A stretch of 63,947 nucleotides of DNA, filler included, from Licmophora abbreviata (taxonomy: Eukaryota), in NCBI GenBank assembly GCA_900291995.1. It is 24 parts of 24 records of this genome, joined end to end, with 100 filler letters (N's around TTAATTAATTAA, not from the genome) between each part and the next. Parts side by side here need not be neighbours in the genome. Positions count along the whole stretch, not along the records: positions 14,365 to 17,386 come from OLMU01006287.1; 23 more parts are not named here. One strand, 5' to 3'. Below the pieces are notes generated by a model. It saw only the letters and a program-made list of their open reading frames with translations, did no database searches and had not been told where the DNA came from. Within the stretch, counting starts at the first letter, position 1. Every line of letters begins with the position of its first letter. A program made the translations under genes and the position numbers. This document shows positions 4,771 to 39,936 of the stretch, piece after piece.

Positions 4771-7149
4771 ATGATTCACTATTTCATTTCCATCGTGCTC
4801 CTGGCAGTCCTTCCGCACATTGCTCGTGGGCAGTGTATTGCAACAGACTTCACGCTTCACGAAGTCGAGGGCGAGTGTGGCTATGAATCTCTGTACAAGG
4901 CCTTTGAGGCCTTCTACGAGGAGCATTTCAACGCTGCCCTTGGCTGCACCGGCAATGCAACTGGAGAGCTCCTTCAGCTCTTAAATGTGGCCAATGTGGA
5001 CGACGCAATGGTCGCAATCAAGAATACTGTATGTCGCCAGGCCTATGATGACGTTGACAAGTTTCCCTTTGCAAAACTGCCGGGACCTAACTATCCTGAT
5101 GGAAGGACCTTCATCAAGCAGTACTTCAATGGCGGGACAGACTGGAACGAGCAGGTGGAAACGCTAGTTTACGGGTCTGAGGGCGAAGAAGAACGGTCCA
5201 ATCATCTCAAGGCAGACGCAAACAATGTCTATCTCCATTACACTTTCAAGCAAGGCTCCTATGGGGTAACAGAATTTCCGGACTACTTGGATAATTTTGA
5301 CGGTTGTGATCTAAACTCGGTCTACTGCTGCTGGCCACAAGATCGTCAGGCCAGAGATGGCAACGGCAATTGCAATACTCCGTACGACATTGATTGCGTC
5401 GACAAGGATCCAGCTGATAACACCGACCTCTGCTACGTTGAACTATCTGAAGGCCAGATTGCTACAGGCTACAATTCCAACAGTGATGGTCACATCGTGT
5501 TCCCCTTTGATGATGCCAAGACCAAAGACAACCGTGCAGAAGGTCCAATTCACTGCCACGGCCTTGCGTGGGCTAATGATGAGGTCGACACGTCTAGTAT
5601 TTTCAAGGGAAATAATCTCTTCTACGTGTCCATGTATGATCATATGCTCCGTCGCGGATACGTTCGCAATGTTCAAGGGGCTCCCATGTGCGGTTGTTCT
5701 GAATATGTAAGTCACCTACTATACATTGCTTTGTGGGTCGACTTGGTCTTGGTTGTAAGCATCGAGAGGCAATCGTCGCCAATCCATTTTTGTCTCTCAC
5801 CTACTCCATATGTCGACTCCCGTGCCAGATGCCTACTGTGTCTCGAGCTGACTGCACACAAATCGATATTGCAGGTATGAAGCTCACCTACACCTTCCAG
5901 AACGGCGCCTTCACTGCTACAATCAAGCACATCGACATTGACTTCAACTCTTGTCAAGGAAAGGATCGATACGGCCAAATCGACAACAACGACCTTTGGT
6001 CGTACATGAACCGGCTCTACATGGAAGGAAAGCTCGAGGAGGCGAAACTAGTTGGCATCTCGGAGAAGCTAGTCGGTGATGATCCCAACATGTGTCGCCA
6101 CGCGGAGGACAAGTTCATGACTTCCAAGGGATACATCCGTGGATTTGAATTCGACCGTTCTGAATGGACGCTTCTTGCCGGGAGGGGGGCCCTCGATTAC
6201 GATGAGCCTACATTCTACGGAAAGGACGGAGCCAGCTATCTCATAGGAGGTGGCCAGGCTCCCACACCTTTTGAGCCCATGATCATTCGTCGCCTCTGCG
6301 CTTCATGCTATGATACACACCAAGATATTTACTACAAACGACTCACTCCTATTGATGGTATCGACCTTCTCGACAATCTCATGTACTCTACGAGGGAAAC
6401 ACCGGGACAGATCTGGGGCGTGGACTTTCATCTGTTCTCCACTCTCGAAGATGCTCAAATGGATATGAATGCGTGGGAATGTGATTCCTACAGGTACGGG
6501 GACGGCTTTCCGGGAGACTGTGGGCCCTACGGACCAGTGTCGAGTCAGGAGTCCCTTTTCAACAGATGGGATCGTCGCTTCGATGCTGCTTTTTTTAGCC
6601 AGACGCCTCCAAGCGCGCAGTTGTTGCGCAAGGTTGCATCTGCAAATGTCGGCTACAACTACTTTGATGGGGCTGTATACTCCGATGACGACCCGTACGG
6701 TGCAGGAGAGCTACTATACATGACAGCGTCTGGTCGTGATATATGGTATTTGGAAGATGAGTTCAACTCCATGTTCGAGACTCGACCAGCCGATAGTGAC
6801 GCCACCCTGAAGGTCAAGGTTGAGTCCCTAAATGGCAGAGATTCGTGGACGAAAGCGGGCCTCATGATCCGTACTTCCATGGATGCTAATGCTCCATATT
6901 TCGCCGTTCTGCTCAGTTGGAAGAATGGAATTAGTATTCAGTATCGAACGGACACGGGCGATGGATCCAAGTCAAGTGGCAGCACTTTCGGTCTCCAGCT
7001 CAACTCAACATGGCTCATGCTGACCAAACGTATTGACAGGTACACCGGATACAAATCGGAGGATGGAATTGTATGGGAGGAGGTCTCCGGAACTGTTACC
7101 CTCGACTTGAATGATGTCTCTTCCCCATCATTCTGGTACTCAGGACTGG
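4771..7149 (+). CDS. Secreted multi-domain protein (Cys-rich N-terminal domain, second Cys domain, ConA/DUF1349-like beta-sandwich); exons 4771-5706 and 5829->7149; runs into the gap
   Basis: Signal-like MIHYFISIVLLAVLPHIARG. Intron GTAAGT(5707)..CCAG(5828) joins CGCSEY to MPTVSRADC in frame. Motifs CCWPQDRQA..NGNC, IHCHGLAW, RRLCASC..HQDIYYKRLT, ASGRDIW, WTKAGLMIR. Confidence 0.8.
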
Positions 7150-12462: not shown

Positions 12463-14264
12463 GACTTTAGGAGAGACTTCATCTGCGTTTCCCCGTATAC
12501 GCCTCAGCTACTTGCTTGTAGCCATCATCATCATGGACATCCTCGCGAGCGCCCCTGCTCTCGCCCAACACACTTGGCCGTACCCCGTGCTCACGAGGTG
12601 CCATGAGCCTAATCAACGCCCCACTCGTGAGCGAGTCCTCCAGACCATTCTGGAAGTCAATGCGGATGCCGCTTCCGTTCAAACTTTCACCATGGCAGGT
12701 GCTCCCGGTTTCGGCCTCCTTGGCCTGACAGTAAGCCCCAACGAGTATCTTGCTGCCACTGGTCAACCATGGGCTCGACCTCCTCAGCTACCCAACCAGC
12801 CTGTCCTCCCACAGAATGCCACAGGTGCCATCATTGCCGAAACCAACCGTAGACATCAGCAAGAGTGGAATCAGTATAACCTCCTAGACCAAGAATGCCC
12901 TCAGGAACCAGCTCCTCAGCTCCGCCGACGACGTGTTCTGGTCGCCACTCCGCCAAACCATCACTGGATACGGGCGACGCAGCCCCCGCGAGTTTGTGGC
13001 TCATCTCACAAGTGAGTACGCCGATTTTGACGAAGCCACCTCGGACGCACTTCAAACCGCTATGGACGTCGCCTGGTCTGGTGCCCCTTTCGAGTATGTC
13101 ATCGCTCAGATCGAAGACGGTGCCCGTGCATTTGCAGAGGCCAATCAGCCTATGCCCGACCACCAAAAAATCATGAAGCTCTACACAATTGTCAAACAAA
13201 GTGGGCTTCTAGACTCCGCCTGCGAAAAATGGCGACTCAAAGAGCCAGTCTCCAAAACGTGGGCAGAGTGCAAGAATCATTTTGGAAAGTATGCAAAGGA
13301 CCGGGCGAGCATGGCCACCGCGAGCACCCAGGGATACGCTGCTCACACCGATGCGAGCGCACTCACCGATGCAACTGCGGCCCTGATTGAAGCCACTACC
13401 AACATGGCTTTGATGGCGAAGCAAGGAGGAACCTCGGGCGAGGACACCACCATTTTGAAACTACAGGCCGACCTGGCCATCACCAAAGCGCAGCTCGTGG
13501 CCCTCCAGGATCTCACCAACACTCGAGGCGGCCCCCGTCGTGGCAACCGTAAATTTCGAAAGCCACCGGGAAATCCAAAGAATCACCCATTCTATTGTTG
13601 GACACATGGTCACAATGCGACCCACGATGGCCCAGGATGCAAGCGCCCCGCCGAACACCACCGCAATGAGGCAACCGTTGCAAATCCAATGAACGGTTGT
13701 GGCTACGACCACGCCAGTGCCTGACCCAGCGGGACGGAAGAAATACAAGACAGCAGTAACGACAATAAAAACACTCCACCGTCTTATCCTTCCCCCTCCC
13801 CGCCTACGTTGTCGGCTCTTTCGTCAAGCCACCCACCCAAAGTCCCCACCGTGATTGATGCAGACCGTCGTCCAATTCTCGATTCTGGCACCACCGGTCA
13901 CTACTTCGTCCTCGACCCCACCACACCGGTGTTCGCCATAACAGACACCCCCACACCCTTGCAAGTCGGCCTCCCCGACGGCAACACCATGACCAGCAAC
14001 CAAGTAGGACAGCTGCGCATTCCCGGTCTCCCCTTGGCTGCCCAGACAGCACACCTATTTCCTAGTATGACTGCCTCCCTCTTGTCCGTCGCCCAACTTT
14101 GCGACCACGGGTGTATCGTCACCTTCATCAAAGATGCAGCAACCGTCCTGTACAACAACACAATCGTTCTGACAGCGGAACGCGACCCCGTTTCTCGCCT
14201 ATGGCGCGCCCAGCTTCAGCACTCTGCGTCCATGCCAGGCCCCAATATCATCCAGCACGCAGCC
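12463..14264 (+). mobile_element. Ty1/copia (diatom CoDi-type) fragment: gag 12533-13724 (frameshift near 12885), then in-frame protease 13725->14264
   Basis: Gag motifs ALRNQLL..DD..W..L....TGY and YCWTHG..H.G..C..P..HH..EAT..NPM.G; protease ILDSGTTGHY, LLSVAQLCDHGC.V.F, RDP..RLW. Confidence 0.85.
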
Positions 14265-14364
14265 NNNNNNNNNNNNNNNNNNNNNNNNNNNNNNNNNNNN
14301 NNNNNNNNTTAATTAATTAANNNNNNNNNNNNNNNNNNNNNNNNNNNNNNNNNNNNNNNNNNNN

Positions 14365-16159
14365 AGCAGCAACATTGGTGGAAACAGTGATTATTTGTGT
14401 ATAACTCAAAAACGGACCAGGATTACAACGGCGGAGGAACCAGAGGAAACGGGGCGGGGGAGGAAGAAGGCAAGACCACACAGGGGCAAACGAGGGCAGC
14501 GTAGAAGAGCTCACCGGCTGCCAGCAGGGTCGACCAGGAGCAATGAGGTGGCGCCAGCAACAGGGGGGGTTCCTGCGGATGAGGATTTCGGCGACGACAT
14601 GGCGAAACGACCGTCGGGCACCACACGCCTCGCGTTCGCAAATGTGGATAACTTCCCAGCGGTGTCCATCAACAACCCGAAAGTGATGGCACTTAAGGCG
14701 TTTGCACGGCAATGGGGGACAGACCTCCTGGCCGGATGCGAAGCAGGCCTAGCATGGAACAGGATGCCCGCCGCGGGCCGCCTTCCGCAGATGTTTCGGA
14801 CGGAATCAGCTCTCAAATCAGTCGCGGCGTACAACGAACACGAGACAACGGGGAGGAGGCAACGGGGCGGGACCTTCGTCCTAGCGTTTGGACAGACGGC
14901 GGCAAGGGCCACCCAAACCGGGCGAGATCCTTCAGGGCTAGGACGATGGGCGTGGATGCGCTTCCAGGGGAAGACAGGACTAGTCACCAGAGTCGTGGCC
15001 GCCTACCAACCTTGCCAGTCGGCGCGAGAGCAGCTCCTCAAAGTATACAACCAACAGGCACGATACTGGAGAAGCAAGCGGAGGACACGGTGTCCGAGGG
15101 AGGCATTCAAGGAGGACCTCGTGGCGGAACTGCGAGCGTGGAGAAGGCAGGGGGAGAGACTGATCTAATGGTAGACGCGAACGAGGACACGTCGTCGGGG
15201 CCCCTTCAACGCTTACTGGATACGGAGGGATTGGACATGAGGGAGCGCATCCAAGCAAAGCACCACCACCTGCCGACCACAGCTACATTCAACAGAGGAG
15301 GACGCGAGGGTCGACACCCGGTTGATGGCATCTTCACAACCCCGGATCTACCGATTGCACAGGGAGCTTGGCTGGCGGTTGACAAAGGGGTAGCCGATCA
15401 CCGCACAGGGATGATCGACATTCGCACAGATGTTCTCCTCGGCGAAGACACTCTCCGCATCGAACGCCCAAAGGCACGGAAATTGGCCTGCTCGGTCCCG
15501 AGATCAGTGACGAAATACGAAGCGTACGTGGAAGCCCAGTTCGCCCGACACCAGCTTCTACCCAAATTACACGACATCTACATCCACCGAGGCGCGGCGT
15601 TGGGCACAACGCACAAGGCAGATCTGAACCGGTTGGAACAGATTCGTACGGCAGAGATCATGCGAGCGGCAGAGAAGCGGTGTAGACAGCTGAGAATGGG
15701 CGACATCGACTTCTCACCGGAGATCAATCGGGCACGACAAACCAAGCTCCTGTGGCGTCTTATCGTGAAAAAGAAAGAAGGGGGGAAGGTCAATGCGTCA
15801 CTCATCCAGAGGAAAGCTAAGCTCTGCCACATCACTGGACCGATGGGCTGTACCCTCGACCAGGCGAAGGCGGCCTCACTGGAAGCGGACACAGCATGGC
15901 GGGATCTCAAGCCCCGAAGCGGCCCTTACCGACAGGCTTTCCTCCAGGAGAGGGCAACCAACCTGGAAGGACTGCTTTCCGCCGAGGAGCAAACGGCGGC
16001 AGAGAGACTCCTGCGCCAAGAAAAGCAACGCGACACGTACCGCCTCATCAACAGCGTCCTTAAGAAACGAGCGGCAGGAAGTGTGTCCAAGATCGAGGCC
16101 GCGGGCGAAGGGGGATGGGTTACACACGAGGACCAAGCGTCGGTAGAAGAGCATATCAT
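14365..16159 (+). mobile_element. Ambal-like LINE fragment: APE-type endonuclease and linker, frameshifted near 15165, interrupted at 16159 by an LTR element
   Basis: RLAFANVDN, DLLAGCE, QRGGT, DPSGLGRWAW, VVAAYQPC, LI-(fs)-MVDANE, VDGIF, ADHR, FSPE. Confidence 0.85.
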
Positions 16160-16333
16160 TGTTGGGAGATGTCTTTTTATCAATTCTAGGCGAAGAAAGC
16201 CTCTTGGGATCGATGACTCTCGCTGCAAAGGCGCAGCTCTCTCAAGCTCACTTCTATCGAATAATCTAGTAGACAACAGTGATTTAGTGTAGACTACTTC
16301 CGATCATCCTAGTGTTTGAGCTCACTTGCAACA
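16160..16333 (+). repeat. 5' LTR (174 bp) of a copia element inserted into the LINE
   Basis: Starts TGTTG and ends CAACA (5-bp terminal inverted repeat). LINE coding similarity stops at its left edge, and gag follows downstream. Confidence 0.8.
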
Positions 16334-16347
16334 TTATTCGATAGAAG
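16333..16347 (+). promoter_or_regulatory. Non-tRNA primer-binding site complementary to LTR nt 16251-16265
   Basis: ATTATTCGATAGAAG is the exact reverse complement of CTTCTATCGAATAAT; no TGG tRNA-type start. Confidence 0.75.
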
Positions 16348-16551
16348 CCCTCAGGAGCCGTATCGGAACATAGGAACGAGGTGGCCTTGATACAGGAACA
16401 TCATTGCCAGAGTAATTGTGCGGTCATTCTCAACGGACGAGAATCACGCCCAACGGTGCATCACATCACGCATCATCACATCACGACAACGATAGCAACA
16501 TCGACATCGTGAGACAAGTGAACAGCGTACACAAAGTAATCCTCTAACACC

Positions 16552-17386
16552 ATGAGTGCTAGAGGTGGACGCGGCCAAGGTGGCCGTAGCAGCGGTCGAG
16601 GACGTGGCCGCGGCAGGAACTACACCAGCCCGAGGAAGACAGCGAAGAAAGGACTTTGCGAAGCACTCGGAGCGAACGTGTTCGATTACGGACAGAAGGC
16701 GTCGGCAGACCTCATGCGAACTACATGGGAGAAGTTGGTACAATACGTCGGCACCAACTACGGAACAGAGATCAACGAGGAGTTGAAGACGAAGACGAGA
16801 GTAACGATTCCAGCACCAGCACCAGCATACAACGCATCAATCATGACGCGCCATGCAGCCAGGGAAGCAATGGTTCGAGCAGGTCAGAACAACATCCAGG
16901 CGGTTCGCAGGACAAAGCTTGCAAGGCTTCAGGCAGTAGACCCCGAAGTCGACCCGGATGTTGACATCAAAGTGGCAAACCTCATGAACGAGATCGCCGA
17001 GACAGAATATGAGATGCAACAGGACATTCCCATCAAGCTGACGGAAAGTGAGAAGTCAGAACGGGACAGCGAGCTCCGCACGTATCGTGAACTCCAGAAC
17101 CAGCTGAAGAAGCAGCGTGGTCAAGTGTTCAATCTCATGCACGGTCAGTGCACTCAGTTGCTCCAGGACAAGATGAAGCAGGATCTTGACTGGCATGCAA
17201 CCAACTCGTCGAACGATCCACTCACCCTTTACCGATTGATCGAGAAGACGGTACTAGCTCAGACGGAGGATCAATACCCGTTTGCGACCGTCTATGAACA
17301 GGAAACAGGACTGTATTCCTTTCGTCAGGACTCCCTGACCAATCCAGAGCTACTGGAAAGACAAGGAGTGTTACAAGTGTGGTCAG
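16552..17386 (+). CDS. Copia (CoDi-type) Gag N-terminus, truncated by gap
   Basis: RGG-rich start; G.CEALG.NVFDYG...AD.M..TWE.LV.YVG..YG; GQCT.LLQDKMKQD..W; DPL.LY.LIE. Confidence 0.8.
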
Positions 17387-17553
17387 NNNNNNNNNNNNNN
17401 NNNNNNNNNNNNNNNNNNNNNNNNNNNNNNTTAATTAATTAANNNNNNNNNNNNNNNNNNNNNNNNNNNNNNNNNNNNNNNNNNNNCCCAGGATGAGCGA
17501 AACCTTCTCACAGATCACAGTGCACAGCCCATCATCGCTTCCTCGTTCCATCC

Positions 17554-20500
17554 ATGGTGCTTTCTCGGATCACACGCTCCCCGGCGAGCCCCACGGGCCC
17601 TGGACCACCTCTCTTTTCTCCTTCTCTCTACGCTTTTCTTCGGAAGGACTCATCCTTTTTCGATTCCACTTTCGTTTATCTCTTTCCCTCCTCCTTCTGG
17701 TTACCCGCCTTTGTCTCGGCTCCGCCACCTCCAATTCGTGCATCTCCCAACCCCTCTGGCGCCCACTCTCACCCTTACCCCCTCCTTTCCCCCTCTCGGA
17801 TCCTCCCGCCACCCCTCCGGTTCCCTACTCTTATTCCCTCCTACCCCCCTCCCCCATTTTCCCTCTCCCGCTGGCCGTTCAGCTTCTTCCTACATTGGCC
17901 TTCGTTTCGCTCGGTTTGGACACTCCTTCGGATCCCATCGACAACACCACCATATTACTTAAGGGCTGCTGCCCTCTTTGTATCAATCCCTTATCCCACG
18001 AAACATTTATGGCTTTCCCACGCAGTGCTTCCCATACGCGCCCCCCACACTTATGCCTCCCCCCACCCATTGTGTACCTTTCTCCACAGCTTTCTACACA
18101 AGTCCCTCGTTCCACACCGCACTCTTCCCCCCTCCTTCACCCATGCTTCATTCCCGCGTTACCCCAGCACCCGCGACACCCACACCTCATTCCCACGTTA
18201 TTCCACCCGTGACTCACCGCTTCCTTCCACACACAACCCCCCTCGGTATTCCCTAACTCCCACACGCGACACCCAAGCCTCATCCCCGCGTTGTTTCACT
18301 CGCGACTCACTTTCCCTTCCCGCTCGCGACTCCTTTTCGAACTCACTCACTCACATCCAACACGCCTCCTCACAATTTTCATTCTTTCGCGTCGCTCCTT
18401 CCTTCTCGCTCAACACTATGCCGGACGACACCTTCTCCCCTTTCCAACACCCTTTCCCACCGCTTCTCCCGCCTGACGGCCCAGCTGATTTTCGTTGCCT
18501 CGATGCCCGCCTCCACCTACAGGACAGGTTTGGGCTTTCTCCTCCGGCCACCGAATTTTCCCTGGATGATTTGTCCGCCATCATTACCAAGTCTATCCGC
18601 GCTCACACTGACCACCTGGAAATGGACCCCACTGCTCTGGTCTATGACGTCTCTTCCGGCCCCATCCACCAGGAACAAATCTCATCCCGCCCCACCTACT
18701 GCCAACGCTTCCGTATCATTTTAGCACCCGCTCCCACCGAAGACCAATACGACAGCGGTGTCTTCGAAGACGTCGTGGTCGCGCTTGTCACCCAACGTTG
18801 GCACCACTTTCACCCCAACGACCCCCCACTTCACATCGCTCCCACCCCCACCCACCCTCTACCAACCTGTGGGCACCGTTCTTGGATCTATTCCTCCCAC
18901 CCGTCAACACATACGAACACCGTCTGCACGGTCTCCTACTTGGTCCGGCTCCCCCTCGCTTCGGAACGTCTTTTCGCGCTCTGCAGGGTCTACTCTACAC
19001 CATCTGGGAGCAACACGCCGCTTATCAAGACACCCTAGCAGAGTTCTCATCCTCCCCTCCACCAGCAGCGGTCTCTCTTGGTATCGATTACTTTGATTTC
19101 TCTCGCTTCCTGGGCCTTCGCGTCTTGTCTCGCTACGGCCCCAAACAACTCGCTTTCTATGGAGTGCACGCACAGTCTCCTGCACATTTCAAGCTTTTCT
19201 CCTCTTTCCTTGGCTCCCAAAATTTGTCTTACTTTGGCGTCCCAATCGGGGTCGAGTCCATTTCGACGCCACATTCCCTCTCCGTTGCCACCACTGAGCA
19301 AATGGCCATCTCTGCCCAACTCCACCCTGATCACACTTTCTGGCGACCGCTGCCCCTACGCATTCAACTCCAACAGGACATAGACCGTATCCTGGGTCTC
19401 GCGGCGGTTCGATGCCTCGCTCCTACCTTCGATGATGACAGTGCGCTCCCCACCGGCTGGCAGGTCGGCTTCTATGTCACCCAAACCACACTCCGCCTCG
19501 GCCGCACTAACTCCCTATGCAACCTCATCCCTTCGGACCTACTCATGCGGGACCCGCCACCCTCTGGCGCAAGCGGCAAACAGCCCACTGTCCCATCACC
19601 TTCCCGCTCCAACCTGCTAGCTGACTCTCCCAGCTCCAAGAACTCTCTTCGTTCTCATCGGTCCGTCCGCTCTGCTCGCTTCCAGGCGTTTATTGCGGGC
19701 CATTCCCACCCCTCCTCTCACCATACGGACACGCCCGACCATGACACAGTGTCCACCACTGCATCTCTTGCCTCAACGACTTCCCCCAAACGACAACGCG
19801 CCACACCCACTCCTTCTACCCCACCTCCAAACACAAATGCCCAGCCTTCGCCTCCTTCACGCCGACCTCCTTGCCACTGTACCCCCGGTTGCTATTCTCG
19901 GGTAGCTTCTTTACCTTTCACATGTCCCTTTTGCAATTGCATCCACCGAGCAGACGGATCAATTTCGTTTCAACCCATCACTCCCGATCCCCTTTCTCCC
20001 TCTCTGCCCGCATGCCCTCCCCACGCGCGGTCTTCCACCAAGGACTCTTCTTCCACCCCCAGTATGGCCCCACACGACACTTCACCTTCGCTTGGTACAT
20101 CCCAGCCGTCTCCTCGACCTTCCCCGCGCTCTTCTCCTCGAACTACTCCCTATCCTCCTGCGCCTTCTTTTGGTCGTGACCCTGCTTCTTCTTCGTCTAC
20201 GCCCTCGCCCCCACAGACCGAGCCGTCAGATCCTGCATCGTCTCCCCCCCTTTCGCCCCCTCGGACACAGACACCGGTTCCTGCATCACCTCCCCTCCTT
20301 TCCTCTGTGGCTCGAGCCCACCCACAACCTATTCATTCGGCCATCACTGATCCCCCACGCATGCCTCCTGCGGAACGCCCCTCCTCGCCTATGACCATTG
20401 ACTTTCTTGACGACGACAGTCACTCCACCATTCAAAACACTGCCTCGTCTTCCCCAAGCGACACCTCTGTCGACCTTCTCATCGACTCAGAAGACCCGCC

Positions 20501-21086
20501 GTATACCCAGGACTCATCCACTCCCCCAGATCCATCGCTTCGCCCCAGTCAATTCACAGTTGAATCCACCTCTCCACATCCATCCCCGGAAAGCCTCCTG
20601 CCCGTTTCACTGCAGCTGGATCACATTTCGCCTCGGGACAAAGCCATCCTCGGTCGTCTAATGTCTCGCTGCACTTTGCACCGTCGTCACCTCACCTGGT
20701 TCCGTACCTTGGCTCACATTGGCACTAATCCCGACACACACTCCCTGTTCCCTCTACCTTGTTTACAAAACTTTGTGGATGCGCTTCACCCTCCGACCCC
20801 TGGTTACAAGGTCGATCTCTCCGACACTTCTACACATCTATTACAGCTTGCCCACAATCCGACAGTGGCGCCGCATTTCACGATCAGGGATTTTTCTTGC
20901 TTTTTATCGGAGATTACTTTACCTACAGTTTCATCCACTACATCGGTTGACCATCCCCCAGAGACAGCAGACCCAGTTACCGACCCCATTCCTCAGCACG
21001 TCACCACCACCACTACGTCCCCCATTTGTACCCAGCTACCGCGCCACGACAACGATTCCGATGGCCCGGCAGCGAATGCAACATGA
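17554..21086 (+). CDS. CRE copy A ORF1, unknown protein (frameshift near 18845; alternative start ATG 18418)
   Basis: Blocks shared with copy B: PTGPGPP, SPF.H.FPP.LPPDGPADFRCL.ARLHLQDRFG, WAPFLD.FLPPVNTYEH, C.C..GCY...PFTCPFC...H, AANAT-stop. Confidence 0.7.
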
Positions 21087-24000
21087 GTTCATCCGGTACT
21101 GATGGGCTCTTACGTTGTCCCATTCCGTCTTGCGGATGGACTACGCTTGACACCCGTCTGTCTTCTCCTTCGACCCAACGAAACGAAGGCCTCAAACTTC
21201 TTCGCTCGCATCTACGCAGCACCACACATCACTCTTCCTGTCCTTCAGACCTACCCTCCACTCATACCTGTCCACTTTCATTTTGCATGGATTGCAACCA
21301 TCCCTTTAGTTCCGACCCTAACTTAGTCTACCTACACCCCTCTGGCTTACGAAATCATCAACGCTCCACACACTCCTACACCCGTTCCACCACCACTTCC
21401 GACATCTTCCTTCAACATTTCCCGGACTCCTCACCGGACGCATGGTTCCACAGCTTCTCCTGGTTGCACACCCAGTTTACGCAACGACCCCCTACCCCGC
21501 CCAACATACGTCGCAACATCTACTATTCCCTCTCCAGGGCGACGCAACGCCATCTCTTCCGGACTTTAGCTCAGCTTCATCGTGCCTGTGCTGCTTCTAT
21601 TACTCCCATGGCTCCTGTCCCACCGACACTCCTCAGTCCTTCTTTCCAACGCACATCGGACCTCCCTTTCGTCTTACTCTTTCTGTTCCAGCCCCTCATC
21701 CTCCACCCCGGCGGCAACACCACGTCCCGCACTCCTGACTTGGTAGTAGCGGCCCGCCTCAAACTGTTCACTGAAGGCAATCTCCGCCCCCTCTACACCC
21801 AATTGTATGCACTATCCCCCCCTTCCACACCTGTTCGTTCCCGAGATGACCAGCTTGATGCCCAGTTTGATGCCCACTCTCATGAATACGATGAATACAG
21901 CCCTCGGTCCAACCGCCATGCACAAGCGGCAGCGGATCTTGACAATTTCACCGCCTGTGCCTCCCGGATTAACTCCACGTTACCAGTCGCCGACCTCACA
22001 CCGGACAATCTTGATCTCATCGGCGCACTTTATCCTCCGCGACGCCAGTTCCCTAACCAACAACCCTACTGCGTCGACATCTCGCCCAAGCACTCGTTCC
22101 CAAACTCGCTCGGCCGAGTCTGCTTCTCCCATCTCCATTACTCGCTCATCTTTATTCGCCGCTTGCCGTAAATTGAAGCGTGGCTCCGCGGCTGGTCCTT
22201 TTGGCGACTACACTGATGTCTTGCGAGACATGGTTCTTCACTCCGTTCCTCCCCTCAACCCAGGTGATCCTCCTACATACCCTCACGCCGATGCGTTCAT
22301 CTCGATAGCTGACGCCATCTTTGCCGGTACTATCCCCTCTAGCGCTGCTGCTCTACTGCGCAGTAATTATTTCCTCGCGCTCCACAAGGACCCTGCTGAT
22401 CCTTCCAAGCTCCGCCCCATCGGTGCCGGCACCAGCTACCGCCGAGTCCTTGGCGCCCTCATCATGGAACTCTTCAAGACACAATTTTCTGCTCTACTTA
22501 TCACTGAAGGCCAACTTGGGATTGGCATACCAGGAGGCATGGACGCAATTATTCATACGGCCCACTCTGCAGTTTCTCATTTTCTCTCTCCCCGACTTGA
22601 CTCGGTCCCGTCACATGTCCTGTTGACCTTGGATATCACGAACATGTTCAACGCCTGCTCACGCGACAGTTGTCGCGCCATGCTTGCCTCCCACTTTCCT
22701 TTCATGCTTCCCTTCTTTGATCTTATTTACTCTCAAGACAATCTATGCTGGTTTCGTGACACGGAGAACTGCTGGACTTCTTTTCCCCAACAGGAAGGTT
22801 TTGCACAAGGCGACCCGCTAGCCCCTTTTTATGCTTCCCTGGTACTTCATACCGTTTTAACTCCACTCCACGCCGAATTGCAATCCCGGGCGCTGAACCG
22901 TTCCTCAAGTCCTATCCCCCTTCATCAGCACGATACCCCCATCAATCACGTTTCTTCTTCGCTCCAATATCTTGATGACATTCTGGCTATGCTACCAACT
23001 ATTGATCTTCCCTTCTTCTTGCAACGTTTTGTCGAGCTCGGCCTTCCACACGGCATAGAACTCAACCGATCCAAGACCAAGTTTCTTACCAGTATTGACG
23101 ATGCTTCTCCCACAACGCACATGATGTGTCCTCCTGCTATTTCATCTTCCATTCGCCAATCCCTTGCTTTCCTTTCCCCCGACGCCGAGCTCACATCCGG
23201 GCTCCGATTGCTTGGCCATCCCATTGGCAGCGCCCCTTTTGCGCAAGCGTTCCTTCTACAAAAGGCTGATGAACTGCTTCACTACGTTAACAATCTTCTA
23301 CGTACTCTTCCCGACCTTCAAACACAAACTACAGTTTACCGACTATGCCTCCAAACCAAACTTAATCATCTCCTTGCTTCCGATGTTTACCACCACGCAT
23401 CTCTGCCATCAACCCCACCACCACCTTATGGCGCTTCTGCTGATTCTTTTGTTCAACCTCTTTTCCAGTGGCACTCCCCGTTTGTTGACCGTGCAAACAC
23501 CATTCTTTCTTCCTTTCTGTCTCGCATCTGCGACCACCCCGACACCCTTCCACCTCATGCCAGTCACCTCGCGGTACTTCCCACAAACCTAGGTGGCTTA
23601 GGTTTCCGAGCTCCTTCCATCTCGGCGGTTCCTGCCTTCACCATTTCGATCACCCGTTCCCTTCGCATCGTATCCAACGGTGTCATTGTCCCCGGATCAC
23701 CACCCTCTCATCTTCCCGCCCCGATACGAGCGTTTTTTGCAACTTGGTCCTCCCCTTCAACACGTTTACTACGTTTGTACCATTTTTATGGTACCTCCCT
23801 GGCGCGCTTTCATATTCGCCCTCCACCTCGTGGCACCACCCCTTCCTCTCCCCCTCCCCCTGATGAACATTTGGTGCAATTGGTCAAACGCCTTAATCTC
23901 CCGGGTCTACAGCGGGACGTCTGTCGTAAATTTTTTCGGCACTCCCGTCATTCGCCGCTTCACTCTTCACCTGCCCTATCGGCCAATGCACAAGCCACTA

Positions 24001-25073
24001 CCACTCCATGGCTCAGCTTCGCTCTCACTCAAACATCTCGACGCACCATAGCAAACCGCCTTGACAACCGTACATTTCGTCTTGCGGTACAACGAAAACT
24101 TCGTTTACCTTGCCTCCCACCCGCGCTCCTTCTTCAACGATGCACCTGCGGTAAAGACCTTGATCCTCTCGGTGACCATCTCTTTCAGTGTCAGCATTCA
24201 AGCAAATCTCCCCTCCACCACACTATACGGGATACTCTTACCCTCCTTTGTCGCAAGTTATGTCCCCTTGCAGGATTCGCCTCCTCCCATCACTGTGTGG
24301 TCTCTGAACCCACACATCTTGTTCCCGATTCCAACACTCGCCCTGCAGATGTCGGCATTCGCTTATCTCCCACCTACCTGCCCCGCGTTTCTTCCACTCC
24401 ATCACGATATGTTGCCATTGATGTTACCATTCCTCCACCTCCGACTCCATCCCTTTCTCATGCCCCCTCCCCAAGAGCGGTTTCCGCTAAAACGAGGCAT
24501 GAACAAGCGGCTAAACGGAAGTTCGAAGGTCGGGCAAACAACCCCAACAGCCACTTGGACATTGCAGCCCTCACCGACAGCCGCGTTCAGCTTCTCCCTT
24601 TCACAGTCGGACATCTTGGTGACCTAGGCCACTTTGCTCATTCTTTCCTGTTCGGTAAACACAACCGTTCCTTTCCGTGCCCTCCTGCACCAAATTGGTC
24701 CGATGCTACCTTCACTACCTCTATGGCCGCCAAAGCTCATAGACTTGCTTCCGGTTCCCTTGCAGTGTGTGGCCTTCTCCCAACCGCTGATCAACTGTGG
24801 ACACACCGCGCTGATCGTTCCCATTTTTACGGTGATTCATACCATGATGCTCTTCCTTCCCATTGGGCTCTTCACACGTTGGGCCTGAACCTGGTTCGCG
24901 GTTTCAGCCATCACCTGGCCCGCAACTTCGATCGCATCCTTGCGTCTCGCTTGTCTCCCCCTTCTCGGCTAGCTTCGCCATCCATTGCTGTTGCTCCTCC
25001 CTTTCATGCTCCTCCAGTGCGTCCTCTGACTGTGGATCCGCATCAAGCGTTCACAGGTCGTGCCCCGCTGTAG
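21083..25073 (+). CDS. CRE copy A ORF2: two C2H2-type zinc fingers, RT, CCHC finger and restriction-like endonuclease (one frameshift ~22040-22075)
   Basis: CPIPSCGW..HLRSTTH, CMDC..LRNHQRSTH; KLRPIG, QLGIG..GG, LDITNMFN, GFAQGDP, YLDD, LNRSKT, LLGHPIG, LP..LGGLG; CTCG..D.LGDHLFQC, HH.IRD, EP, RPAD, AIDVT, K.KF. Confidence 0.9.
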
Positions 25074-25216
25074 GTCTGCACCCACTACTCCAAGTAGCTC
25101 ATAACCATATCATAGGNNNNNNNNNNNNNNNNNNNNNNNNNNNNNNNNNNNNNNNNNNNNTTAATTAATTAANNNNNNNNNNNNNNNNNNNNNNNNNNNN
25201 NNNNNNNNNNNNNNNN

Positions 25217-32154: not shown

Positions 32155-32292
32155 NNNNNNNNNNNNNNNNNNNNNNNNNNNNNNNNNNNNNNNNNNNNTT
32201 AATTAATTAANNNNNNNNNNNNNNNNNNNNNNNNNNNNNNNNNNNNNNNNNNNNACGTCGTTGGCATGAAAGAATGGCAGAATTGTCCCACC

Positions 32293-35200
32293 ATGATCCT
32301 TTTTTCGCCTTCCTTCCCGCTGTGCCCCACGGGCCCCGGACCTCCACCCTCCTCTCCCTCTCCGCATCTACCTGAGAGGGACTCTTCCCCTTTTCCCGTC
32401 TCCTTGAGGCCGTTATTTGGCTCTTTCCCTCACCTTACCCTACGCAGCTACTTCATCCTCCCTTTCGCTGCCTATCTCCTCCTTGCCATTGGCCTTCCCC
32501 ATTCCATTCCTCCACACGGGCCATGCTGGACAACGCGACACCCCTTCCGTCAGGCGCCTACCTTTCTTCACCCCTTCCCTGGCTCCCCCATCGACACCCT
32601 TCACGCCGGCTCACCGACCGTCGACACCATCCTACCGATCAGCCTTCCTACGTCTCCGGCTGAACGTACGCCAGTTATTGTTAAATCCGAGACCTTATTG
32701 GTTCACCTTATCTATTTAAGGACCCTCCTACCCTTTCGTCCACCTTCACGACTGGGGCTTAACCCCTCTCAATTTCGGCACTATACACCTATCCCTGCCT
32801 GGAGATCATCAGTCCCCATCTCACTCCCGAGTTCAGTCATTCCCTCTACTGGCACCCACGCCCTACAGCGTTTCATCCGGGACTCAACCTTCACGAGGGA
32901 TTCAACCCTCTGTCCTACACGCGATTTGACTTTCATTCCCTCCGCCGATACTCATGCCCTACAACAACTCATTCGTGACTCAACCTTCACGCGGGATTCA
33001 GCCTTCTGCCCCATGATCCGTGATTTGACGTTATTTCATTTCGCGTCTCTTCTCTCCCATCAACTTTTGATCTCACATTGTTTCCATCACGTTATCACCC
33101 AATACTACCGTCGCACCATGCCCTCCCCTGCAGCCACCTACTCCCCATTCAAGCATCAGTTTCCGCCACCACTTCCACCCGATGGACCGGCTGACTTCCG
33201 CTGCCTGGAGGCCCGGCTTCATCTCCAGGATCGTTTCGGCCTCTCTCCTCCCTCATCGGAATTCACTTCCGACAACCTCATTACCATCATCAACAAGTCC
33301 TTTGTCGCTCATACTCAAGCTTTAGGAATGGACCCTTCTGCCTCAGTATACGACGTTTCCGCCGGCCCAATCCACCAAGAAACGATCTCCTCCCGGTCCA
33401 TCTATTGCCAACGCTACCGGTTCATCATTGCTCCCGCTGCCTCTGCGGATCAATTCGATAGTGGTGTCTTCGAAGACCTCATTATTGCTTTCGTTACTCA
33501 ACGTTGGCATCACTTTCACCCCCTGGATCAGCCAGCCTCTAACAGAACCCACCCAAATCCTCCTTCTGGTAACCCGTGGGCCCCGTTTCTAGACATTTTC
33601 CTACCGCCGGTCAACACCTACGAACATCAGCTCTACGGCCTCCTTCTGGGACCCGATCCCACACGGCATGGGACATCCTATCGCGCTCTCCAAGGCCTAC
33701 TATACACGTTGTGGGAGCAGTATGCAGCTCTCCAAGACTCTCCTCCGCCACCGAGCGGCTCCTCCCCCAAGGCCACACTCGGTATTGATTACTTCGATTT
33801 CAACAGAGTTCTCGGCCTCCGCTCGCTCTCCCGATATGGCCCCAAGCACATTCCGTTTTACGGCGTTCACGCCCAATCACCGGTTCACTATAAGATCTTT
33901 TCTCAGCTGTTGGGCTCCCAGAATTTCACTTACTATGGCGTCCCGGTGGGCACGGAACCCACCTCCACTCCTCACTCCGTCTCCGTCGCCACGACGGAAC
34001 AACTACGTCTCTCTACGCAGCTTCACCCTCACCACACCTTCTGGCATGAGCTCCCCTTACACCTACAAACTACTACAGACGTTGACCGACTCCTGGGAAT
34101 TCCGTCTGTGCGATGTCTAGCTCCCCTCTTTCAAGATGACAGCGCCCTCCCTACACGTTTCAAAGTCGGCTTCTTTGTTACACAGATGACTCTTCGCCTT
34201 GCCCGAACCAACTCACTTGGCACCCTCATCCCCAATGATTTGCTTCTCTCCAGTAATACCCATGTCTCTCCATCGACAGAGACAGTCAAGACGTCCTATG
34301 ATGATCCGTACTCTCTCCCTGCCTCTGACGCCACCGGAACCCAGCGGTCGCAACGTTTGGTCCGCGCAGCCCGTTTCCAAGCTTTCTGCTCTGATCATCC
34401 CATGCATCACACAGCGACCGACGCGCTTCCTGACCCTGACCATGACACTGTCTCGACGGCTTCCTCTACCACCCCTGCTTCCTCTCCTAAACGCCGCCGC
34501 CCTGACCCTTTGCCACCTAATACACACGGCTTCACGGCATCCCCTACACAGGCGAGGCCCTCTTCTGCTACTTTGCCCAGCTCCCCCACCCCAAACCATT
34601 GGGAGGATCGGTCCACTTCTCCAGCCAACTCACCCTCCACACAGCCAACTACCCCTAACATACCCCGTCCAGCATGTTCCTGCTATTCGGGATGCTACGC
34701 AACTGCACCCCTTCCTTTCACCTGCCCCTTCTGTCAATGGGTCCATCATCAAGACCGACGCATCACAGCCCCTACTCTCTGCGCCACAGTCTCTCCCCAA
34801 CCTCCGCAAACTCCTACTACTACCACTACCACACCTACTCGACAGGCGGCTACTACCCCTGGCTCCAACCTTGCCACACCTCCCTCTAATACTACCCCTA
34901 CGATGACACCAACTGCCACCAGCACTTCGGCTCCTATTCCAGTATCAGTACAACCCGCCTCCCCTCCCCGACTTTCCTCTTTGGCTCGCGCCAGCCAAGG
35001 TATCCCTTTGCCTGCTCCTTTACCCGACACTCAAATGACGGATGCGCCCCCTCCTTCATCCCCCATGACAGTCGACATGACCCTAGATGACAACCAGCAC
35101 ACTGACAGCGACTCCCACAGCGATCCCAATGACATTGCGACCCCAGCCGACGACGCATCCGATGACTTGCTAGTCCCCTCCTCCGATTCCCCATACACCT

Positions 35201-35682
35201 ACGATGACTCCCTTCCTGACGACAGCCCTCTCCCGCCCAGCCAATTCACCCAAGAATCAACTGCGCATCAGCTTTCCCCCGAATCCCTCCTTCCGGTCTC
35301 CCTCCGCGGCAACCACATTACCCTACGTGACCAAGCCATCCTTGGACGCCTTCAATCGCGGTGTGATCACCCGCGTCATCTTAAATGGTTTCGAACATTG
35401 GCACACACTGCTACCAGCCCAGCCACCATGCACCTGTTTCCCTTTGCGCACCTTCAGCGCTTTGTCGATGCGCTATATCCTTCAGCTGCTGGCATTTCTG
35501 ACCCCGACTGCGCCGAGACCTCCCAGCTACTGATTGGCCTTGCTCAGCATCCTACCGTCGCCTCTCATTTTGCGTTGCATGACGTTGCGTCCTTTCTCAG
35601 CGACGTAGCCAGTGCAGTGACCCCTTCCCAGCAACCGCCTCCGCCCGCATCGGGCCCGAGGACGGCAGCGAATGCAACATGA
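32293..35682 (+). CDS. CRE copy B ORF1, uninterrupted, unknown protein (alternative starts 32266 and 33118)
   Basis: 1138-aa open frame homologous to copy A ORF1. Confidence 0.75.
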   Translation: MILFSPSFPLCPTGPGPPPSSPSPHLPERDSSPFPVSLRPLFGSFPHLTLRSYFILPFAAYLLLAIGLPHSIPPHGPCWTTRHPFRQAPTFLHPFPGSPIDTLHAGSPTVDTILPISLPTSPAERTPVIVKSETLLVHLIYLRTLLPFRPPSRLGLNPSQFRHYTPIPAWRSSVPISLPSSVIPSTGTHALQRFIRDSTFTRDSTLCPTRDLTFIPSADTHALQQLIRDSTFTRDSAFCPMIRDLTLFHFASLLSHQLLISHCFHHVITQYYRRTMPSPAATYSPFKHQFPPPLPPDGPADFRCLEARLHLQDRFGLSPPSSEFTSDNLITIINKSFVAHTQALGMDPSASVYDVSAGPIHQETISSRSIYCQRYRFIIAPAASADQFDSGVFEDLIIAFVTQRWHHFHPLDQPASNRTHPNPPSGNPWAPFLDIFLPPVNTYEHQLYGLLLGPDPTRHGTSYRALQGLLYTLWEQYAALQDSPPPPSGSSPKATLGIDYFDFNRVLGLRSLSRYGPKHIPFYGVHAQSPVHYKIFSQLLGSQNFTYYGVPVGTEPTSTPHSVSVATTEQLRLSTQLHPHHTFWHELPLHLQTTTDVDRLLGIPSVRCLAPLFQDDSALPTRFKVGFFVTQMTLRLARTNSLGTLIPNDLLLSSNTHVSPSTETVKTSYDDPYSLPASDATGTQRSQRLVRAARFQAFCSDHPMHHTATDALPDPDHDTVSTASSTTPASSPKRRRPDPLPPNTHGFTASPTQARPSSATLPSSPTPNHWEDRSTSPANSPSTQPTTPNIPRPACSCYSGCYATAPLPFTCPFCQWVHHQDRRITAPTLCATVSPQPPQTPTTTTTTPTRQAATTPGSNLATPPSNTTPTMTPTATSTSAPIPVSVQPASPPRLSSLARASQGIPLPAPLPDTQMTDAPPPSSPMTVDMTLDDNQHTDSDSHSDPNDIATPADDASDDLLVPSSDSPYTYDDSLPDDSPLPPSQFTQESTAHQLSPESLLPVSLRGNHITLRDQAILGRLQSRCDHPRHLKWFRTLAHTATSPATMHLFPFAHLQRFVDALYPSAAGISDPDCAETSQLLIGLAQHPTVASHFALHDVASFLSDVASAVTPSQQPPPPASGPRTAANAT
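32857..33040 (+). repeat. Imperfect tandem duplication (~96-bp unit) in the CRE copy B 5' region
   Basis: CAYGCCCTACA..ATYCGKGACTCAACCTTCACGMGGGATTCA..CGYGATTTGAC twice; translates as HALQ..IRDSTFTRDS..CP..RDLT x2. Confidence 0.8.
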
Positions 35683-38600
35683 CTCCTTCACTCTCCCAAG
35701 CGGACTTCGTTAGCTGCCCTTTTCCTTCCTGTGGATGGAGGACGCCTGACACCCGCTCTGCCCTTACTCCGACACCTCAACGAACTGAGTGCCTCAAACT
35801 TCTACGGTCACACCTTCGCACCACTCATGCCCGGCAACAACCCGACTCCTTGCCAGAGTCCTACTCCTGTCCTCTATCTTTTTGTCACAAGTGCAACAAC
35901 AACTTTAACTCCGATCCTAATACTATATATTTACATCCTTCCGGTCTACGCAACCACCAACGCTCTGTCCATTCCCCCTACCGCTCCTTCACCACGTCGG
36001 AGGTCTTTACCCAGCATTTTCCGGACGCTCCCCCCGGTACATGGCAATCAGCTTTCTCGTGGCTCCACGCACACACCGCGGTTCACCCCCCCCGTCCCAC
36101 CAAACGTTCGCAGTAACCTCTACTACTCTCTCTCCAGGACAACACAACGGGAACTCTACTCCACTCTGTCCACCCTCCATCAAGCATGCGCCGAGACCAT
36201 CCCTCCCATGGACTCCTCCCCTTCCACGTTGCGTATATCCACCTTCCAACGTTCTTCCGACCTTCCCTTTGTTCTCCTCTTCCTTTTCCAACCTCTTATC
36301 CTTCACCCAGGACACTCCTCTTCCCGGTCCCACGATGCCACGGTCGCCGCCCGTCTCAAGATGTTCTCTACAGGTCGCATCCGTGATTTGTATACAGACC
36401 TCTATGCAATTGAGCCCCCTTCCTCGCTCACCCGTCACAATACTGATACAAGTGATTCTCGGCTTCTTGCTACCGATGAATACAGCCCTACCTCTAATCG
36501 GCATGCCCAAGCTGCAGCTGATTTGGACAACTTTTCTGCTTGCGCTTCACGCATCAACTCCACCCTCCCAGTGGCCTCCCTTACTCCGACCACGCTGGAC
36601 CGCATCTCCTCCTTATATCCACCCAGGTATCCCAGTCGCCATACCTCGACGTCTGATGGGCCTACCACCCGCTCACAGACACGGCTTCTACTCCCACTTC
36701 TACCATTTCGATACCGCATCATTCCATGCTCTCCTCCTGTCGCAAGTTGAAACGCGGCTCCGCTGCTGGACCCTACGGCGATTATACTGACGTTTTGCGT
36801 GACATGGTCCTTCATTCTGTCCCGCCGCTAAATCCAGGTGACCCTCCTACTTACCCTTACGTCGCTAGCTTTGTTGCCATAGCCGAAGCTATCTTTGCCG
36901 GTTCCGTTCCTACCCTTGCCTCAACTATCCTACGCAGCAATTACTTCCTTGCATTACACAAGGACCCTTCCGATCTTTCCAAACTTCGCCCTATTGGCGC
37001 TGGTACTAGCTATCGCCGTGTTCTAGGGGCTCTCCTTATGCATATCTACGGAGAACAATTTGCCGGCCTTCTTATTACGGAAGGTCAATTGGGGATCGGT
37101 ATTCCTGGAGGCATGGATACTATTATTCATGCCGCTCACACCTTTATTTCCAAGGCCCTATCTCCCTCCGAAGACATTTCCGCCCCACCTCCTGCTTCTA
37201 CACTTCTTGCTCTTGATATCACCAACATGTTCAATGCCTGCTCCCGGGATTCTTGCCGCGACATGCTGCTCTCCCACTTTCCTTTCCTTGTCCCATTCTT
37301 TGACCTTATCTACTCTGACGACAACACCTGCTGGTATCGTGATACCTCCAACTCTTGGGCTTCCTTCACTCAACCAGAAGGCTTTGCCCAAGGCGACCCT
37401 ATGGCCCCCTTTTACGCTTCCTTGGTTTTATTCATGGTCTTACGCCCACTACACTCTGAGCTCCGTGATCGATCCCTACAACGTTCCCCCTCTGGCTCTA
37501 CCCGGCTTACTACTTCTACTGCCATTGACTCAATTAATACCTCCCTTCAATACTTGGACGATACGATGGCTTTACTGCCCACAGTTGACCTCCCTTTTTT
37601 TCTTCGACGATTTGAGGAGCTCGGGGCACCTCATGGTGTCCGCTTAAATCGCGCAAAGACCAAATTCCTTTCTAACATCAATGGTACCTCCCCATGCTCT
37701 CATATGCTTTGTCCGCCGGCTATCGCGGATGCTTTACAGCAAGCCACGACTTGGTTGTCACCTTCCGCTGAATGCACTGACGGCTTACGACTACTAGGAC
37801 ACCCGGTTGGCGGCCTCCCTTTCGCTAATCGTTTTCTTCAAGACAAGGCGGACGAACTACTCCATTACGTCAACAACCTCCTTCGGACCCTACCTGACCT
37901 ACAAACGCAGACCACTGTGTATCGACTCTGCCTACAAACTAAAATCAACCATCTCCTGGCAACCGATGTCTACCATAACGCTACCCTACCTCCGTCGCAA
38001 TCGCCATCCACTTCGATTCCCACTTCTGACACCCAACACCTTCACGCCACACTTTTCTCGTGGCGTTCCCCTTTTGTTGACCGAGCCACCAACATTCTTC
38101 ACGCTTTCCTCTCTCGCATTACTGACACTTCTGATGCGTTGCCTCCACACGCTTGTCATTTGGCTGTTCTCCCTTCCAACCTGGGCGGCCTAGGATACCG
38201 TGCACCTTCGATTTCGGCCATCCCTGCATTTGTCATCTCTGTTACCCGGTCCCTGCGAATTGTTACCAACGGTATTGTCCTACCCGGCATTCCTCCTACC
38301 CATCTACCTGCACCCGTTCGCTCTTTACTTCACGATTGGCGCTCTCCCACCACTCGACTTCTTCAGCTGTATCGCCAATTTGGAACCCCTCTTGCACGCT
38401 TCCATATCCGACCACCTCGACACGGCCCTGATCCTGCCATCACTGATCCTCTGTTTCATCTCACTTCTCTTGCCACACGCCTCAATCTACCTGGCTTGCA
38501 ACGCGACATTTGTCGAAAATACTTCAAGCAATCCCGGCACACTTTGCTACACACCGACCCCTCCTTATCAGCGAACGCTCATGCCACAACCACCCCATGG

Positions 38601-39659
38601 CTCAGTTTAGCGCTCACACAGACGTCCCGTCGCATCCTTGCCAACCGGCTGGACAATGACACCTTCCGCATTGCTGTACAACGCAAATTGCGCCTTCCCT
38701 GCCTCCCTCCCGCTTTACACGACAAGCCCTGCACGTGTGGCAAACCCCTTGACTTGCTCGGTGATCATCTATTCCAATGTCGGCATGCCAGTAAATCACC
38801 TCTTCACCATACCATCCGCGACACCCTAACATTACTATGTCGCAAGCTTGGCCCGCTTGCCGGCTACACTTCCTCCCATCACTCTGTGGTATCTGAACCA
38901 ACGCACCTTATTCCAGACTCCAACTCTCGCCCGGCCGATGTGGGCATTCGGCTCTCTCCTACCTACCTTCCCTCAGCTTCACTTCACCCGTCTCGGTATC
39001 TTGCCATTGACGTAACCATTCCCTCGCCTCCGACTCCGTCGCTGTCTCATGCCCCAACACCCAGAGCGGTTTCCGCTAAGACTCGGCATGAACACGCGAT
39101 GAAGCAGAAGTTTGAAGGACGTGCTAACAACCCCAACAGCCACCTCGACATTGCCGCTTTGACCAGAAGCCGCGTACAACTCCTCCCATTCACCGTCGGA
39201 CACCTCGGTGATCTTGGCCATTTTGCGCATGCCTTCCTTTTTGGTAAACATGACTCTTCCTTCCCTTGTCCTCCGGCACCCAATTGGACCTCCGCTACCT
39301 TCACGACATCTACGGCAGCTGATGCCTTCCAACTAGCATCTGGCTCTCTATCGGTCCGTGGCCTCCTTCCTGCGGCCGACCAACACTGGACTCACCAAGC
39401 TGATCGCTCCCGTTTCTATGGCGACTCCTACCATGCTGCACTCCCCAGTCACTGGGCACTTCACACTCTTGGACTGAATCTCATCCGCGGCCTCAGTCAC
39501 CATCTCTACCGCAACTTTGATCGCATCCTTTCGGCTCGCCTTACTCCCCCCTCTCGGCTTGCCTCCCCGTCCATTGCGGTTGCTCCTCCCTTTTATGCTC
39601 CTCCGGCGCGCCCCTCCGTTGTTGATCCGCAACGCGTGATCCACGGTGGGCGGTCTTAG
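35679..39659 (+). CDS. CRE copy B ORF2: zinc fingers, RT and RLE endonuclease (frameshifts near 36090 and ~36690)
   Basis: CPFPSCGW, KLRPIG, LDITNMFN, GFAQGDP, YLDD, CTCG..LGDHLFQC, RPAD, AIDVT. Confidence 0.9.
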
Positions 39660-39936
39660 GTTCTCTCCCACTTTCCCCGTAGCCCATAACCATTTANNNN
39701 NNNNNNNNNNNNNNNNNNNNNNNNNNNNNNNNNNNNNNNNTTAATTAATTAANNNNNNNNNNNNNNNNNNNNNNNNNNNNNNNNNNNNNNNNNNNNCAAT
39801 AAGTCACGAAAGATTTCATTTCTTGTGGAAACGCCACTGTATTTGCATTCGAAGAACATTAACGCACTACTGCTACTACTAATACGTACCCAATTTAGTT
39901 ATGCTTTGGCTTGTTCGTTTGTTTGCAATTCTTGAT

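Follow-up and report, generated by a model that had tools for sequence, protein, structure and literature searches.

The window analysed here, a stretch of 63,947 bases, consists of 24 contigs of 1.0–7.6 kb joined at 23 sites by linkers (N44-TTAATTAATTAA-N44; for example, at 14265–14364 and 17387–17486), and neighbouring stretches may be unlinked in the genome. The element under study lies in the fifth contig (14365–17386, 3022 bp), which contains one 5′ LTR, a leader, and a truncated gag gene (Table 1). The contig ends within gag, and nothing beyond 17386 comes from the same molecule as the element. Repeat searches of the whole window found no second copy of the LTR, a search of the contig against Rfam gave no match at E ≤ 1, and tRNA gene scans of the window and of 14 of the 79 related loci (see below) found none. 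A 69-copy repeat family of the window, D1, was rejected as an artefact of the N-linker spacers.

Table 1. Features of the LTR element and its flank (window coordinates)
Feature	Position	Strand	Basis
Frameshifted LINE-like fragment (endonuclease and RVT_1 type), insertion target	14365..16159	+	translation, homology to P0099
5′ LTR, 174 nt, TGTTG...CAACA	16160..16333	+	sequence; borders from relatives
Putative U3, ending in initiator-like CTCA (16247–16250)	16160..16250	+	U3/R border predicted
Candidate self-primer arm CTTCTATCGAATAAT, putative first 15 nt of the transcript and start of R	16251..16265	+	complement, covariation
Remaining R-U5, 67 nt, beginning with conserved CTAGTAGACAACAG	16266..16332	+	alignment A2, fold
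Primer binding site (PBS) ATTATTCGATAGAAG	16333..16347	+	sequence, complement, alignment A2
Untranslated leader	16348..16551	+	sequence, translation
gag ORF P0002, cut by the contig end	16552..17386	+	ORF call, relatives' consensus

Several other retroelements are present in the window. The two contigs at 17487–25116 and 32255–39696 carry copies, 71–79% identical, of one large element, which covers the repeat families D4, D5, D8–D11, and D15; it has a weak RVT_1 match, and its long ORFs are otherwise without a Pfam family. Further retroelement fragments (46062–50646, 53690–54814, and 57002–60239) include a gypsy-type pol with RVT_1, RNase H, and Integrase_H2C2, as well as two RVT_2 copia-type pieces and a gag that has a CCHC knuckle. 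This gag is not related to P0002, which showed no similarity to the other gag-like contig (58964–60238).

Upstream of the LTR, residues 152–466 of the LINE-like ORF (14697–16157) share 38% identity with residues 255–569 of P0099, a protein of 1904 aa in which Exo_endo_phos (83–338) and RVT_1 (733–962) both score slightly below the Pfam cut-offs. P0099 and P0100, the relatives of this ORF, are ~1900 aa long and carry RVT_1; the ORF showed no similarity to the other contigs of the window. The fragment contains one frameshift near 15150–15170, and the LTR interrupts it ~160 residues ahead of the RT domain. Because the LINE-like homology ends near 16094, well short of the RT, and the LTR begins at 16160, the LTR element is, judging from these homologies, inserted in an older retroelement that was cut off before its RT.

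The LTR itself opens with TGTTGGGAG at 16160 and closes with GCAACA at 16333. Since the window lacks a second copy, its borders rest on relatives: in L012, L004, L033, and L028 the LTR begins with TGTTGG directly after a conserved tract, CCACAGGAGTG, and in L007 and L040 it closes with CAACA followed by unrelated flank. Both ends fit those given in an earlier note on this DNA, which had placed the LTR between TGTTG and CAACA on inspection of the window copy. The element thus shows TG..CA ends, and the purine-rich tract CCACAGGAGTG before the 3′ LTR is seen in its relatives. Across the family, LTRs measure ~170–200 nt and repeats occur with a period of ~5.2–5.9 kb. The first A of the PBS (16333) doubles as the last base of the LTR, and no TGG-type tRNA site follows the LTR in the window copy. 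The sequence TCACTTC, which spans the junction of CTCA and the arm, agrees with the initiator consensus YYANWYY; no TATA box is evident.

Two blocks of R-U5 are kept across the family, at 16266–16280 and 16298–16315 (columns 30–45 and 100–113 of alignment A2, see below). The block right after the primer arm is CTAGTAGACAACAG, and the one near the LTR end reads CATCCTAG(T/A)G(A/T)TTGA. These blocks might serve as a recognition structure comparable to the U5-IR stem found in Tf1 and in retroviruses; RNAalifold gave no consensus pairing for the two of them.

The gag ORF, P0002, extends for 278 aa up to the contig end and contains no Pfam family. It has 93 longer relatives (E down to 7e-100), many of them 1700–1800 aa long and many with PF07727. 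These gag relatives are gag-pol polyproteins of ~1750 aa in which RVT_2 lies at about 1180–1460 (three proteins); the RVT_2 (PF07727) scores were 56.2 bits for P0017, 52.7 for P0046, and 37.6 for P0004, with a cut-off of 31.6. A copia-type RT is therefore present in relatives that share the gag, the window copy itself being cut within gag. As the full-length relatives carry RVT_2, P0002 is, by homology, the gag end of a copia-type gag-pol polyprotein, and the assignment of the element to copia in the earlier note is upheld. No integrase was detected in the relatives by Pfam or by PDB sequence/profile search. Ty1/copia elements (Pseudoviridae) encode their integrase ahead of the RT, in the order PR-IN-RT-RH. 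Some 700 aa lie between the zinc knuckle and the RT in these proteins, and in the A3 consensus a D..D..E-like set (D755, D812, and E844/E852) was seen by eye ahead of the RT, with HVDD plus WVDASFA beyond it.

The window copy departs from this plan at its 3′ end. The last 36 nt of the contig (17351–17386) encode the zinc-knuckle motif, YWKDKECYKCGQ, in a frame other than that of gag; FRQDSLTNP in the window gag is followed by YWKDKECYKCGQ at once, whereas in the relatives the motif comes ~145–180 residues later. This jump at 17320–17386 would be explained by an internal deletion and a frameshift, or by a chimeric contig end. Given that the motif follows early and in another frame, the window copy is, by comparison with its relatives, probably defective, with an internal gag deletion and a frameshift.

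Complementary arms in the window copy and in related loci

The earlier note had reported an exact 15-nt complementarity between the LTR and the PBS, which was reproduced here: the arm CTTCTATCGAATAAT and the PBS ATTATTCGATAGAAG are exact reverse complements (15/15). They form the only exact inverted repeat of at least 13 nt with a gap of 30–260 nt on both strands of the 63,947 bases, where, by our own estimate, ~0.01 such 15-mers would be expected by chance. The RNA fold of 16250–16350 closes on the 15-bp helix (MFE −26.8 kcal/mol, z = −3.5), and one of 200 shuffles folded as well; its centroid is essentially the helix alone, plus one 2-bp stem. A search of sequencing runs for the stretch listed no RNA run and a single DNA run, X1 (0.05 share of words), which gave five short contigs over the stretch, with no molecule ends. 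A ~95%-identical contig from this run spans 16199–16505 and differs by 15 substitutions and one insertion, none of which falls in either arm; this conservation lends weak support to self-priming.

Metagenome contigs were scanned with the gag alignment, which yielded 79 loci (L001–L079) with 36–65% gag identity. In most loci, an exact 14–17-nt pair was the best inverted repeat of the 800 nt upstream of gag, with the left arm within the LTR, the right arm directly after ..AAC, and an arm gap of 55–153 nt. The arm matched the PBS at 13 or more of the 15 positions in 51 of the 79 loci, in the same position throughout: 38 loci matched at 15/15, 10 at 14/15, and three at 13/15. Among the remainder, no pair was detectable in 20 loci with <300 nt upstream of gag, and no pair was found in eight loci with at least 300 nt there. 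The feature is kept in relatives down to ~42% gag identity. The left arms are diverse, with 32 distinct sequences among the 51 loci, to which the arm of the window copy adds one. CTCA precedes the arm in 39 of the 51 loci, and the initiator-like TCA that had been pointed out before the arm of the window copy is thus conserved.

The eight loci of this last class, with at least 300 nt upstream and no pair, call for individual comment. The contig of L033 starts 3 nt into the left arm and so cuts it, and the match is 15/15 through the 3′ LTR; we took this start within the arm as an assembly break. The PBS of L028, at position 65, matches the arm of the 3′ LTR at 3460 at 15/15. L007 and L065 have a leader longer than the sequence available upstream of gag, and no recognisable LTR was found in the sequence upstream of gag (at least 360 nt) in L049, L055, L063, and L074. 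No locus among the 79 has an LTR–PBS junction lacking complementarity, and the loss of complementarity in relatives, which the earlier note had named as evidence that would count against self-priming, was encountered in none of the loci with such a junction.

Two contigs hold more than one family member. L051 contains two adjacent elements (186–368 and 5789–5982) whose arms differ, each fitting the PBS of its own element, and L063 contains a further matched element at 13249–13358; these are tandem or nested family members in one contig with unlike primer/PBS pairs. The leader from PBS to gag is usually 20–520 nt long, and the sublineage of L028 (65–1335) and L065 has a leader of ~1270 nt with repeated CGACCGTAACGTCGGCAG-like units. 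Upstream of gag in L049, at about 300–560, are several copies of a tRNA T-arm-like motif, GGGTTCAACTCC; ARAGORN called no tRNA in this region, and the repeats may represent a SINE-like or tRNA-derived repeat in place of the LTR. No poly(A)-tailed or transcript-like contigs were found among the 79 loci. Imperfect arms proved uninformative as a mark of dead copies, and arm perfection does not follow ORF intactness: the ORF is open in 19 of 40 perfect-arm copies and in five of 13 imperfect-arm copies.

One could suspect a chance match or an assembly artefact of a short metagenome contig, given that the contig is just 3022 bp long and carries one LTR and a rearranged gag. However, the inverted repeat is the single one of its kind in 63.9 kb and recurs in 51–53 independently assembled loci. 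Its uniqueness in the window and its recurrence across loci refute this explanation, to which we assign practically no probability.

Covariation of the LTR arm and the PBS

Window positions 16237–16355 were aligned with 37 non-identical locus stretches to give alignment A2 (38 rows). RNAalifold on A2 returned exactly the 15-bp helix and no other pair, with both-side changes in 11 of the 15 pairs. Of 564 cells, 99.1% were paired, a percentage biased upward by the choice of rows with at least 13/15 complementarity, and the corresponding values were 36.0–53.0% when the partner was slid by 1–3 columns. Double changes occupied 94 cells, compared with 11–23 for a slid partner; there were six one-sided (wobble) changes and five unpaired cells, and none of 500 shuffles reached any of the pairing measures. 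An indel is likewise mirrored in the two arms: relative to L023 and L038, the loci L024, L071, and L076 have one T less in the T-run of the arm and one A less in the A-run of the PBS.

The helix has sharp edges. Of the 38 rows, none pairs at the inner neighbour positions, 11 form the outer A:U pair, and two form the next pair out. The helix is bounded by the conserved initiator-like CTCA at one edge and by the LTR end at the other. Within the arm, the 5′ CTTCT and the AAT at the predicted cut site hardly vary, and the middle is free.

We also performed an unselected check that used flank motifs only, namely, CTCA, then 15 nt ending in AT, then CTA, CAT, or CAC on the left side, and the first AACAT 40–200 nt further on for the right side. 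Applied to the 79 loci and the window, it gave 45 candidates, of which 31 matched at 15/15, five at 14, two at 13, and seven at 3–8. Three of the low scorers (L001, L018, and L041) have a premature AACAT, and their true junction matches at 15/15; the other four (L007, L033, L040, and L056; 4–8/15) are LTR copies followed by flank, without a PBS. The scores fall into two separate groups, and the LTR copies before flank serve as a natural negative control. The earlier note had suggested examining family members for covariation between the LTR 15-mer and the PBS, and the outcome is strongly positive, with 11 of 15 pairs double-changed, 32 arms, and a mirrored deletion.

These data bear on what the helix is for. 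With 32 distinct arms among 51 loci, a single shared host primer cannot explain the pattern, and with only six one-sided changes, copying of one arm from the other fits better than slow selection on an RNA stem. It could nevertheless be argued that the helix is a selected structural RNA that acts in packaging, dimerisation, or translation control, and that the true primer is another host RNA, for example, a tRNA half. Precedent for this comes from the fungal GalEa copia elements, which have hairpins at the PBS position for which the published description of that site offers no known priming model (PMC5445492). Against it, the right arm stands at the PBS position, from the last base of the LTR, in 51 of 51 loci; no TGG-type site follows the LTR; six one-sided changes contrast with 94 double changes; the indel is mirrored in both arms; and the pairing stops exactly at the initiator-like motif. 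Moreover, with 32 different arms, priming by such an RNA would call for another conserved primer site, and A2 shows none. We therefore regard a purely structural helix as very improbable.

Candidate self-priming route

The locus probably comprises the 5′ LTR, PBS, and leader of a copia-type retrotransposon with Tf1-like self-priming of reverse transcription. This reading, first put forward in the earlier note, gains support from the family-wide covariation; the RNA-level steps, namely, where transcription starts, where the RNA is cleaved, its use as a primer, and the confinement of priming to one RNA molecule, are inferred. The conserved initiator-like CTCA and the sharp outer edge of the helix lend indirect support to the predicted start. 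Transcription would start at the conserved CTCA|C initiator (16250/16251); because the outer A:U pair occurs in only 11 of 38 rows, the start could be A or C. The first 15–16 nt of the RNA would then pair with the PBS in a fold-back that leaves the 67-nt R-U5 as a loop, and the element's RNase H would cleave after the invariant AAU (16265/16266). The freed 3′ OH would prime minus-strand strong-stop DNA across U5-R, with synthesis beginning at the last-but-one base of the LTR.

By this route, the PBS of a new copy would be copied from the primer, i.e., from the RNA's own 5′ end, and a change in the LTR arm would pass into the PBS within one replication round. Such copying would explain why the family has many differing arm pairs that are almost always perfect. 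It would also account for the scarcity of wobble pairs, for the mirrored deletion, and for the fact that complementarity stops at the presumed 5′ end of the RNA. The comparative evidence for the predicted self-priming is unusually strong.

The same arms and the same primer could also work in trans, if a second co-packaged RNA or a short LTR transcript annealed to the PBS. LTR elements package RNA dimers, which is compatible with this variant, and all of the covariation fits priming both in cis and in trans, which sequence alone does not separate. On the other hand, every locus has its arms within 55–153 nt of each other, a single molecule folds favourably, and priming in Tf1 is described as a fold-back. 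Priming in trans appears unlikely, though it merits more weight than the structural alternative, and self-priming within one RNA is the reading that we carry forward.

Significance and comparison with known systems

Self-priming has been shown experimentally for Tf1 and is predicted elsewhere, in the Tf1/sushi gypsy elements and in one plant copia lineage (PMC7175516, PMC4600332, and PMC6317226). A broader proposal, which we advance tentatively and with somewhat less than even confidence, is that a widespread clade of aquatic-protist copia elements gained self-priming independently of Tf1/sushi and of the plant TAR lineage, with the PBS re-copied in each cycle and the primer free to drift. A second, deeply divergent self-priming copia clade would mean that LTR elements evolved, or retained, tRNA-independent priming on more than one occasion. 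If self-priming holds, the element would no longer depend on host tRNAs and might also escape host small RNAs directed at tRNA-type primer sites, and both the transcription start and the RNase H cut site could be read from the sequence, with single-nucleotide precision, at the edges of the complementarity. In addition, the family would offer a natural experiment on the constraints that act at each primer position. For annotation, pipelines that seek only tRNA-type primer sites will miss the PBS of this family in protist genomes and metagenomes.

By description, the family can be likened to the diatom CoDi elements of marine protists, which have LTRs of 153–844 bp and total lengths of 5.2–8.1 kb (PMC2806351, Maumus et al., 2009). 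Like them, the family described here is copia-like and has short LTRs with TG..CA ends (PMC2806351). The earlier note mentioned a self-priming proposal for a Phaeodactylum CoDi element; no such proposal was found, and the main text of that paper contains nothing on primer sites or self-priming (PMC2806351). A search of the full text of articles likewise turned up no paper that describes self-priming in copia elements of diatoms or of other algae.

The fungal GalEa copia elements are described as having no tRNA-type PBS and as carrying a Conserved Hairpin Site at the PBS position (PMC5445492). The present family resembles them as a copia group without a tRNA-type PBS and with a conserved structure at that position (PMC5445492). 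The GalEa site, however, is a local palindrome just past the LTR, for which the account of the site reports no LTR-internal complement (PMC5445492), whereas the present site is no palindrome and finds its partner within the LTR.

The likeness to Tf1 and Tf2 of Schizosaccharomyces pombe, and to the Tf1/sushi elements Tj1 and Tcn1, lies in an LTR-adjacent PBS that complements an LTR-internal stretch (PMC7175516 and PMC4600332). In Tf1/sushi, that stretch is the known or proposed 5′ end of the mRNA (PMC7175516 and PMC4600332). The absence of a tRNA-type site is shared as well, as would be fold-back and RNase H cleavage, which are predicted here (PMC7175516 and PMC4600332). In Tf1, pairing with the PBS involves the first 11 bases, and the RNase H cleavage falls between bases 11 and 12 (PMC7175516); the primer predicted here is 15–16 nt long, and its PBS overlaps the last base of the LTR. 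Priming in Tf1 was shown experimentally, while the present family is known from sequence. The two also differ in their pol: the Tf1/sushi elements are Ty3/gypsy chromoviruses with a gypsy-type pol (RVT_1, with the integrase after the RT), whereas the relatives of our element carry a copia-type pol with RVT_2 near the C-terminus. Because of this RVT_2, the element, judged by the domains of its relatives, would work like Tf1 yet falls outside the Tf1/sushi gypsy clade.

Self-priming in copia is itself not a new idea, having already been proposed for plants. It is predicted for the TAR lineage of plant Ty1/copia elements, which includes Houba and Osr-1 (PMC6317226, Neumann et al., 2019), and these authors cite earlier self-priming proposals for Houba and Osr-1 (PMC6317226). 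They looked for a 5′ LTR region complementary to at least 10 bp starting 0–5 bp past the LTR (PMC6317226). Our element likewise belongs to the copia superfamily and has an LTR complement of this kind (PMC6317226). Unlike the plant TAR elements, its relatives were recovered from metagenome contigs of marine, sediment, and other origin, and the evidence consists of family-wide covariation with 32 arm variants, which we set beside TAR by description only. The family is best regarded as a second copia lineage that is predicted to self-prime.
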